From a virus (lineage: Duplodnaviria > Heunggongvirae > Uroviricota > Caudoviricetes), in IMG/VR virus record IMGVR_UViG_2579778666_000022: a DNA stretch of 27,848 nt; one strand, 5' to 3'. Numbering within the stretch: position 1 is the first letter of the stretch; the number at the start of each line of letters is the position of its first letter. Shown here piece by piece: positions 24,001-27,000 of the stretch. The position numbers were made by a program.

Positions 24001-27000
24001 ATTCCCGTATACAGAAAGGTATTCACCGTCTTCGTGTGGATACCCATTTCACTGGCAAGGCGACAGGGTCTCGACTGGCGGTAGACATAACCGAACATCA
24101 CCACCATCTCTGACATCGTCAGCGGGCGGGCAGCACTGTTATACGTCCAGACGCCGTTGTGTATGGCATCACTTATCTGCTCACCATCACGGAGCAACTC
24201 CGCATCCAGTTGCAGAAAATGACGCCCCTGGAACATACACCGCATCAGCCTGCCCAGCAGGCCATCACTGATTATCAGCCAGGATTCGTCAAAGTCCGGG
24301 ATATAACGGCGGTTCTCCGGCAGGAAAAACTCCCTCGCCAGTATCACACTGTGTTCCTTCAGTAACGCCTGCAGGCCATATTCCAGGTAGCGGTTCCTTG
24401 TGGCCAGAATTACCTTCATCGCAGCACCTTCCTGTTTTTATGCCCCATGAAAAAAAACGGCAGGCAAAACTCCTGTGCCTGCCGTCATGCTTCATGTCAC
24501 TGTCAGCAATTAAAACTCGAAGTTCACACCTACGTTGTAGGAAACATCACCGTCGCTGGCTGCAATACCTGCTTTGGCTGCGGTCTGCTCGTTGAAGCGG
24601 TAACCCACACCAACAGCCACAGCCTGTTTGTCACTGTAACCACCCAGGGCTGCCGTGGCGTTGAATTTACCCACACTGTACGGCTGGAACAGACCGGACA
24701 GCGCCGCACTCTGTGCTGCCGCACGTTTCATTTCTTCGTGGTTTTCACGAATCTGGCGCTGCTGGCTGTTCAGGCGTGCGTTATGCTCCTGCAGCTGGCG
24801 GGAGTGATTCTGGATAGCCTGGGTGTTACTGCGGGTTCTGTTGTCGAGGCTGACAACAGCATCATTCACACGAACGTTGCCCGGTGCGCTCTGGTCAAGT
24901 GTATAGCTGCCATCTTTATTCTGGTAGACAGTAGTGTCAGCCTTAATATCTGCGACTGTTTGTTTTACAGAATAACGCTCACCGCTTCCCTGATTTTCAT
25001 CCAGCGTGATATTGCCATCGGCATCAAGGGCAAATGTAGTGGCATTTTTCAGGTCATTTACATTTGTGCCGAGACGGTTGAATTCCTGTAACAGCGCTCC
25101 ATTACCATCTTTAGCCGCTGTTAGCGCAGCTTCTGAACTCATGCCGTTACTGATAGCAATATTGTAATCTTTCGCAGTTTTACTGGTGATAACTGAATTA
25201 ACACCATCAATATTAGATTTTATTTTTTCAATATCAGCTACGGTTATATTCTGTAAATTTCCTTCTGTAATAGAAGGGAACTCAGGTGGTAAAGATATGC
25301 TATAACGGGCCGCTTCACCTGCAACTTGAGCCACCATCTGCAGTACAGATTTGTCTTTAACCAAATCTGGGTTCTTTTTTGAAAAACGATCAATAGCAGC
25401 ATTAACCTCGTCAGTATTGACGGTAGTAATCATGCCATTTTTAATATTTATAACCCCAGTAAAAATATCTTTATTATCTTTCGCATGAACAATTCTGGCC
25501 GACTCAGTAGTATCATCAACAATTATCTTATAATCACCAATAGCCACCACCTGTGCAAAAGAGTTAACACTCACCAGCATCAATCCGGCAACAGCAGAAG
25601 AAAGAATAGTCTTTGTAAATTTCTTGCTCATGTGGTATACCCTATAAAATTATCTGTATACAAATAAAACAGTTCAACATCAGATATATAAAGAAAATCT
25701 GATGTCTCGCCGCTCTCATGAGCTTACTCCTGAAGAAATTCCGAATTTTAATATGAAGTTTTTCGGAATTTCCTTACTATAACGTCGGTGATATCACGTC
25801 CGCGAAGGGATATCCGCATTACGACTGGCCTGCCACTTATGCTGTCTCTTTATTCATCAACAATTTGTATACGGTTACATCTTTAATTGTGAAGTCAGTC
25901 ACAAAAAGAAGAAAGTCAAATAATCAAATTGTGCTTAACTGTTTACATCAGCACAATCTGATGACCATTCAAGGACGCACTAAATTATTTTCAGCAATCC
26001 CTCAGCCTACGAAAATTCTGTATCCCCTGAATGTTTAATTTACACTCTTTTTATGCAATTATTCTTTCGACTATAAAAACACCACTATCTCATGTATGAC
26101 CTTGGGGAGCGTGCCGTCTCCCCGTTTTTTCGCTTACAGTTTCATGACGACTTTCAGTTTCAGGAATCAGCAGTTACCATGCAATACGAAAATTCTGTAT
26201 TGCATCCGCGCCCTCATCTCAATATCTTTGTCGCCGGATAAAAATAACTATCAACCACAAGTATCATGCTCTCGGGGAGCACGCACTCCCCAGTTTTTTA
26301 TCTTTGACAGGGGTGAAGGAGGCCGTTGCATCTCCTTTAATTATCATTGCCAGATTATTTCCTCGACCTGAGTATTCTTTATTTAGCCATAGCTTTGTAG
26401 CAAGGGGCTGGAGCGCCCCTCTTTTTTTCACCTGTCAGCCATGCCGACCTTATACGCCAGTATAGCTTCCGCATCACCCAGCGCTTCAATCTCTTTTTTC
26501 ATCGTGCGCTGTCTGACATGAATTTCCAGACCTTTGGTAAACATCGCCTGCTCTGCAGCAGCACTCAGAGCAATCAGTGTTTCAGCGTCCATCGGTACGT
26601 CATTATTGTCCGCATCCGTCCAGAAAAACTGCTCCGGCAGTTTCCCCGCTTTCGCTGCCGCCACCGACGGCTCAAGACGCGTCTGCGTTGACTTCCCGTA
26701 GTCCCATTTACGCCCATTGTGCTCAAACGTGTAGTTCGCCGCTTCCATCGCATTACGCCAGGCATTAATTTCCACCTTTTTCCGTTCACGTGACTGTGTT
26801 AAAGCTTCCGGCGGTTCTTCATACGGCTTAATCTCTCCATACCTGCCGGAAATTAAATCAGTAAAAAGTTGTCGTCCGTGATTTTCCGGATCATTTTCTG
26901 ACGCAGTAAAAGGAAACCATTGCTCACCAATTTTTATCTCACAGGAAATATTACCCAATCGAGTATATACCGCCCCCCTGACGTCTGTTACAACAATCGC

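Follow-up and report, generated by a model that had tools for sequence, protein, structure and literature searches.

The eib gene considered here lies in a 27,848-nt stretch of viral DNA (IMG/VR record IMGVR_UViG_2579778666_000022, Caudoviricetes; hereafter the window), where a palindrome-rich region sits between eib and the tail-fibre assembly gene tfa. On the other side of eib, an intrinsic terminator separates it from an open reading frame (ORF), orf156, whose product is referred to as ORF-156; the genes ibrA and ibrB are also encoded in the window (Table 1). Eib proteins bind antibody in a non-immune manner and promote both resistance to serum and adherence in chains, and activation of eib genetically requires ibrAB. 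Expression of EibG rises in static, microaerobic culture at 37 C (PMC4352079). Among 5426 complete E. coli genomes the eib upstream region is rare; it was found in 29 to 43, usually in multiple copies each. Prophage P-EibA of ECOR-9 (AF151091) is 98% identical to the window over the palindrome-rich region and 95.5% identical over a longer query, and carries an annotated stem_loop equivalent to the eib terminator.

Table 1. Features of the eib locus and of its upstream region (positions in the window; IR, inverted repeat).
Feature	Coordinates	Strand	Description
ibrA and ibrB	4297-6152	+	PAPS_reduct and DUF3440 (ibrA), weak ParB_N match (ibrB); ~19 kb from the eib region
orf156	23949..24419	-	Predicted to be an atypical NarL/FixJ-like regulator with a degenerate receiver domain and a GerE/LuxR-type helix-turn-helix
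Intrinsic terminator after eib	24450..24483	-	GGCAGGCA...TGCCTGCC followed by T8; read from the sequence
eib	24510..25631	-	From the ORF list; 373 aa, signal peptide, YadA-type membrane anchor (Pfam YadA_anchor, E 4.4e-16)
Candidate sigma70-like promoter	25649..25677	-	-35 TTGAAC (25677..25672), 17-nt spacer, -10 GATAAT (25654..25649); predicted
-10 palindrome	25653..25664		TCTGTATACAAA; overlaps the -10 region
IR1	25677-25685/25697-25705		ACATCAGAT-N11-ATCTGATGT
Box 1 remnant	25719..25732		TGAGCTTACTCCTG; degenerate in the window
IR2	25735-25745/25762-25772		GAAATTCCGAA-N16-TTCGGAATTTC
Box 2	25763..25776		TCGGAATTTCCTTA (TAAGGAAATTCCGA on the opposite strand); RcsB-type pseudo-palindrome, 14 bp
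-10-like hexamer	25776..25781	-	TATAGT (TACAGT or TACACT in other lineages); no usable -35; predicted
CRP-type site	25888..25903		TGTGAAGTCAGTCACA; TGTGA-N6-TCACA, both core pentamers perfect
Inverted repeat overlapping IR3	25928-25935/25950-25957		ATTGTGCT-N14-AGCACAAT; lineage-specific
IR3	25946-25951/25958-25963		CATCAG-N6-CTGATG
tfa	26428-27024	-	Tail-fibre assembly gene (DUF4376); far side of the tfa-eib spacer

A preliminary description of this DNA had listed three strong inverted repeats upstream of eib, and all three are present in the sequence, although IR3 lies one base away from the position first given for it (25947-25964). As described there, IR1 is located at the candidate -35 element, which it abuts, and the core ATCTGATG recurs: four copies occur in the window, three of them within the region, whereas 0.91 would be expected in the whole window. 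The high density of repeats likewise proved to exceed chance. When 25632-25990 was subjected to 5000 dinucleotide shuffles and scored for perfect repeats with arms of at least 6 and loops of 3-20, the shuffled sequences contained 1.74 +/- 1.3 such repeats compared with the eight observed (P = 0.0008); the probability of an arm of at least 11 was 0.0014, as was that of two repeats with arms of at least 9. Repeats absent from the earlier list include TTGTGA-N6-TCACAA, a paired GATATC and a paired GTATAC, as well as a repeat that shares bases with IR3, so that the two could not pair simultaneously. A terminator scan reported none of IR1 to IR3, the stems of which are A+T-rich and lack a T tract, and a reading of these repeats as terminators was ruled out on this basis.

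The region was then viewed against 49 distinct sequences, each covering the 360 nt that precede an eib start, which fall into seven clusters (lineages) that are ~70% mutually identical; 23 of the distinct sequences belong to the window's own lineage (lineage A). Because selection on the palindromes themselves was to be avoided, loci were gathered by means of the orf156 protein and of distant DNA similarity. The alignments indicate that the three palindromes are not equivalent, IR1 alone being conserved as a dyad. The symmetry of IR1 is retained across seven lineages, four of which keep both the core TCAGAT-N11/12-ATCTGA and the spacer TAAAGAAAA. In lineage C the repeat reads GTGTCAG-N15-CTGACAC, three pairs having been altered on both arms (ACATCAG/CTGATGT to GTGTCAG/CTGACAC); in sequences L089 and L092 one pair has been altered on both arms (TCATA/TATGA), and in lineage D the arms are lengthened to 12 bp. 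Pair counts were obtained from a 17-sequence alignment and compared with 500 shuffles and with slid-partner controls; 73% of IR1 cells were paired, against 63.6% in the shuffles and 22-36% with partners slid, and eight pairs were changed on both sides, against 4.1 in the shuffles, values that none of the 500 shuffles reached.

The perfect form of IR1 seen in the window is a minority allele, carried by 3 of the 23 sequences of its lineage; the other 20 have G at 25682 (ACATCGGAT), and one of these also has G at 25679. The A-to-G change recurs in lineage D, and site 25682 appears to fall on the degenerate position (R) in the half-site published as TN(G/A)GA. The IR1 pattern occurs once in the window, with no further copy near ibrAB. 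A scan of viral contigs for TAAAGAAAATCTGAT returned only chance matches in unrelated contigs. IR1 formally fits the T-N11-A pattern of a LysR-type site, but no LysR gene lies nearby and this candidate was set aside.

In its paired form IR2 is confined to the window lineage, in which its 11-bp arms never vary apart from a single sequence that has A at 25762; elsewhere, the right arm and its flank are conserved. Box 2 lies at this position. The RcsB box consensus is a 14-bp pseudo-palindrome, TN(G/A)GAN4TC(T/C)NA (PMC7913699), which Box 2 matches at 8/8 specified positions in lineages C, D and E and at 7/8, in the same aligned position, in lineages A, B and F; variation is concentrated in the N positions and the specified positions are kept. 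Perfect matches to this pattern are expected by chance 0.01-0.03 times per sequence. A second RcsB-type match (for example TGAGGATATTCCTA; lineages C, D, E and F each reach 7/8) occupies the aligned position of Box 1, 44 bp closer to eib than Box 2, and explains the different long inverted repeat of lineage D (GATATTCCTAAAAA / TTTTTAGGAAATATC).

In the window lineage, half of Box 2 seems to have been newly copied in inverted orientation to give the lineage-specific left arm of IR2; IR2 is also readable as a direct repeat spaced by 23 bp (TGAAGAAATTCCGAATTT / TGAAGTTTTTCGGAATTT). The same 38-nt IR2 is annotated as a stem_loop at the same place upstream of eibA in AF151091, and had thus been noticed before; the annotation states no function, and IR1, IR3, the CRP-type site and Box 2 are unannotated in that record. 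IR3 contains TCAGCACAATCTGA (25948-25961), a 7/8 RcsB-type match with the half-sites spaced by 4 bp. It is lineage-specific, in that the sequence of other lineages does not align as such a repeat, and it is broken (CTGATA) in 6 of the 23 window-lineage sequences.

Two further elements, unlisted in the preliminary description, are the CRP-type site and the palindrome over the -10 region. The centre of the CRP-type site is 264.5 bp upstream of the eib ATG; its core occurs in all lineages with 0-2 mismatches, and is perfect in the window lineage and in sequence L003. The -10 palindrome is a perfect 12-bp TTTGTATACAAA in lineages B, C and D, and is conserved in six of the seven lineages. The order and spacing of the elements are conserved as well. 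Toward eib, 126 +/- 2.5 bp separate the CRP-type site from Box 2, 78.5 +/- 1.5 bp separate Box 2 from IR1, ~31.5 bp separate IR1 from the 12-bp palindrome, and the latter stands 27 bp from the ATG, each spacing being kept within 1-3 bp although the intervening DNA has diverged. The sole large change is found in lineage B, where 42-43 bp lie between IR1 and the 12-bp palindrome, an addition of 10/11 bp, or one helical turn.

In the Shine-Dalgarno area, the octamer at 25634-25641 forms perfect palindromes that differ between lineages (GGTATACC in A and C, GATATATC in B and GGATATCC in E; L003 and L015 were aligned here), and GGATATCC recurs at 25808-25815.

On the eib strand, nothing but the candidate promoter of Table 1 gave a sigma70-like match. 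Its -35 hexamer is not conserved in other lineages, and the -35 element is weak or unconserved in every lineage. Scans with a position weight matrix found recurrent -10-like hexamers at 25654 and 25781, accompanied by poor -35 elements, and across lineages no promoter that was both strong and conserved in position; such a weak or unconserved -35 fits an activator-dependent promoter. A divergent gene on the plus strand, suggested by AGGAGG-N8-ATG in lineage E, was discarded upon inspection of the ORF list, in which tfa ends at that place.

The ORF adjacent to eib had been called LuxR-like, and its predicted structure bears this out. ORF-156 had no match in Pfam or NCBIfam even at E<=10, and its profile matches to LuxR/GerE chains were weak (E 0.1-0.3). 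An AlphaFold model based on a 19-sequence alignment (predicted local distance difference test score, pLDDT, 87.5; predicted template modelling score, pTM, 0.81) consists of a receiver-like alpha/beta domain and a C-terminal four-helix helix-turn-helix domain. When the model was used as a Foldseek query, the top 42 PDB matches all belonged to the NarL/FixJ family, with E values from 6.6e-4; the best matches were StyR, RcsB-DNA complexes, FixJ, LiaR, EvgA, DesR and VpsT. The N-terminus of ORF-156 reads ...LATRN... at the expected DD pair, and D52 is retained. Lacking the acidic pair, the protein would be an atypical and probably phosphorylation-independent regulator, of the kind that partners RcsB. 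RcsB is partnered by the LuxR-type protein EcpR/MatA at TTCCT/RcsB boxes (PMC13593695), and RcsB and GadE act at the GAD box (PMC2887963).

The ORF-156 family is restricted to E. coli, and its members are annotated 'hypothetical protein' without a domain. At every locus found by the orf156 search, orf156 lies downstream of eib, and the loci found by upstream-DNA similarity carry an equivalent 474-bp ORF after eib. A scan of GTDB species representatives for orf156 gave one match, 87% identical, on a 601-bp contig assigned to 'Xanthomonas pisi' (NZ_JPLE01000137.1), which is probably assembly contamination.

With moderate confidence, we read the tfa-eib spacer as a multi-input promoter/operator region of eib that acts at the DNA level. 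On this reading of the sequence, eib would be a 'moron', a prophage-carried accessory gene with control signals of its own, and the spacer would hold its promoter and operator; toward eib, a CRP-type site would be followed by Box 2, the IR1 dyad, TTTGTATACAAA over a weak -10 element, and the ATG. The palindromes would serve as dyad-symmetric sites for dimeric helix-turn-helix regulators, the likeliest binders being NarL/FixJ (LuxR-type) proteins, namely host RcsB and/or the locus-encoded ORF-156, possibly as an RcsB heterodimer with ORF-156 of the RcsB-RcsA, RcsB-GadE or RcsB-MatA kind. Once bound, these regulators would assist firing from a promoter whose -35 element is poor. In this scheme it is the assignment of proteins to sites, the sign of the regulation and the start of transcription that we infer. 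Binding sites for a dimeric regulator, as the preliminary description had suggested, are the best reading of the palindromes; the left arm of IR2 and IR3 do not fit as conserved sites, being lineage-specific, and in the window lineage would be recent additions that duplicate half-sites.

The arrangement has counterparts among known systems. As with RcsB/RcsAB boxes and the LuxR-type partners of RcsB (RcsA, GadE, MatA/EcpR and BglJ), the 14-bp pseudo-palindrome of Box 2 resembles the consensus, an adhesin locus encodes a small protein of LuxR type whose receiver is degenerate, and half-sites contain TTCC, as they do in EcpR boxes. It departs from these systems in that the box of the window matches at 7/8 positions and the half-sites of IR1 are widely separated, and in that ORF-156 has no detectable GerE-family sequence similarity and a different putative recognition helix. 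CRP-dependent promoters share the perfect TGTGA-N6-TCACA core, which is conserved here across lineages; they differ from the present case, in which the site stands ~265 bp from the ATG and ~250 bp from the sole sigma70-like match. Like other prophage 'moron' cassettes, eib follows a tail-fibre assembly gene, is preceded by a conserved region of its own and ends at its own terminator; unlike them, it has an unusually long upstream region (360-800 bp) that is rich in conserved sites, and its cassette also carries a regulator-like gene. The conserved blocks were also compared by eye with the consensuses of LexA (CTG-N10-CAG), IHF, UxuR/ExuR, TyrR, OmpR and LacI-type proteins, none of which fit.

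Several observations weigh against the regulatory interpretation. The half-sites of IR1 (TCAGA/TCTGA) are 13 bp apart as opposed to 4 bp in an RcsB box, so that IR1 is not a canonical RcsB box, and the corresponding half-sites of lineage E (TCATA, TCACA) are without the key G. The RcsB half-site TNRGA is itself low in information, and the two 7/8 matches found in the window are not significant alone (P = 0.11). At its distance from the candidate promoter, the CRP-type site occupies a non-standard position for activation. As aligned here, the putative recognition helix of ORF-156 reads NTFLYT, compared with SSQKKS in RcsB. Polymorphism within the window lineage is not lower in the repeat arms, where 4 of 52 positions vary, than elsewhere (15 of 282). 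Finally, the literature searched, which did not cover the primary Eib papers, contained no start-site, footprint or mutant data for eib promoters.

Alternatively, much of the palindromy could be without function, a by-product of AT-rich acquired DNA and of quasi-palindrome correction or local duplication by template switching. This account applies chiefly to IR3 and the left arm of IR2, both confined to the window lineage, and it is in keeping with the second reading of IR2 as a direct repeat, with the broken copies of IR3, with the scarcity of the perfect IR1 and with the absence of polymorphism depletion in the arms. It is difficult to reconcile with an IR1 core, Box 2, CRP-type site and TTTGTATACAAA that stay at fixed spacing across lineages only ~70% identical, the DNA between them having diverged, or with IR1 pair counts that surpass all 500 shuffles, and as an account of much of the palindromy we consider it unlikely.

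The preliminary description had also named the ParB-like IbrB, which forms an activator pair with IbrA, as a protein that might bind the palindromes, and IR1 would then be its foremost site. ParB-family proteins do bind palindromes, both ibr genes are encoded in the window, and the ibrAB allele of the window (at least 99% identical) is found in only 19 genomes, which is close to the count for the window's eib lineage. However, ibrAB-like pairs (~84% identity) are present in 1930 of the 5426 complete E. coli genomes, compared with 43 that have the eib upstream region; this indicates no specific association of IbrB with these sites, and IbrAB must have other targets. An IR1-like motif is found nowhere else in the window, the vicinity of ibrAB included. 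Moreover, the arms of IR1, IR2 and IR3 are separated by 11, 16 and 6 bp, respectively, whereas known ParB-type sites (parS, NBS, KorB) are contiguous palindromes and not half-sites 11-13 bp apart. Taken together, these considerations make IbrB an improbable ligand of the repeats.

Structured RNA in a long eib leader had been put forward as well, in which case the stability or translation of the eib mRNA would be controlled by hairpins that the repeats form in its 5' leader. The window allele of IR1 does fold on the eib strand (-11.1 kcal/mol, z -3.3), as does IR2, which GenBank annotates as a stem_loop and which would be placed at the 5' end of a leader by TATAGT at 25781..25776. The majority allele of IR1, however, sets C against A in RNA of the eib sense and folds poorly there (-6.4 kcal/mol, z -0.7), folding is weak on both strands in lineages B and E, and the pairing of IR2 is absent or shifted in other lineages. 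All four arm polymorphisms within the window lineage break pairing, and none is compensated. For the eib strand, RNAalifold across lineages did not predict a hairpin at any of the repeats, and Rfam 15 gave no match over the region at gathering scores and only noise at E<=10. A phasing insertion of 10 bp is sensible for DNA but not for RNA, and the conserved helical phasing, together with the conserved sequence of the IR1 spacer, points to proteins on DNA. The leader proposal fared poorly in this light, and we hold it to be very doubtful.

On the plus strand, three tandem terminator-like hairpins lie between tfa and eib (26103-26130, 26274-26298 and 26403-26428), within a 177-nt direct duplication (TACGAAAATTCTGTAT at 26008 and 26185) of which P-EibA is without one unit. 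A terminator-like hairpin of the same strand stands beside the tfa stop in lineages A, B and C, and a similar one (GGGGAGC...GCTCCCC-T7) is found past orf156, at 23743-23761. These hairpins would halt transcripts that enter the tail-fibre genes in the antisense direction.

There is a slim chance that the plus strand is the functional one, giving rise to a divergent or antisense non-coding transcript that runs from near the eib start codon, through the repeats, to the terminators ahead of tfa. Promoter-like matches recur on that strand at ~25645, although their spacers are 15 nt long in most lineages. The recurrent A-to-G change in IR1 yields a G.U pair in plus-strand RNA (14 A-U, 3 G-U and none unpaired), and the opposite strand is the only one on which RNAalifold recovered IR1; the fold is limited to the 6-bp core, at a mere -1.2 kcal/mol, and belongs to no Rfam family. 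The terminators beside the tfa stop would suit such a transcript, but could equally stop any transcript antisense to the tail-fibre genes.

Besides ibrA and ibrB, the window contains a ynfE/F-like gene, and we take it from this combination that the remnant of an Eib prophage is connected to the IbrAB island in the window. Two matches to the Rfam family sRNA-Xcc1 (2808-2896 and 3345-3430, plus strand), which at 69 and 73 bits exceed the gathering score, are placed between the ynfE/F-like gene and an ORF resembling an AntA/AntB antirepressor. Immediately past ibrAB, a 2787-aa polyvalent protein with LPD38, LPD5, LPD1 and MuF_C domains is encoded at 6916-15279 on the minus strand; adjoining it is a SocA/Panacea antitoxin-like ORF (6241-6765, minus strand), within which a second perfect CRP core is located (6402-6417). 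At the other end, an IS1 transposase fragment (27277-27654, minus strand) lies just past the tail-fibre assembly gene, and the prophage is interrupted there.

The region upstream of eib, an acquired adhesin gene, is best regarded as an uncharacterised promoter region of a conventional kind with multiple sites. The map of conserved candidate sites, along with ORF-156 as a regulator-like protein, gives rise to specific and cheap experiments; no general principle is altered by it. IbrA is PAPS-reductase/DndC-like, and it is conceivable, though highly improbable, that IR1 and its relatives are targets of IbrAB, with IbrB recognising TCAGAT dyads and IbrA modifying or remodelling the DNA so as to activate silenced prophage adhesin genes; were this true, IbrAB would be a DNA-directed pair and an epigenetic-type activator, not a classical transcription factor. 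Less exotically, ORF-156 could be a new RcsB partner resembling RcsA and GadE, one that ties envelope or surface sensing to the display of Eib.

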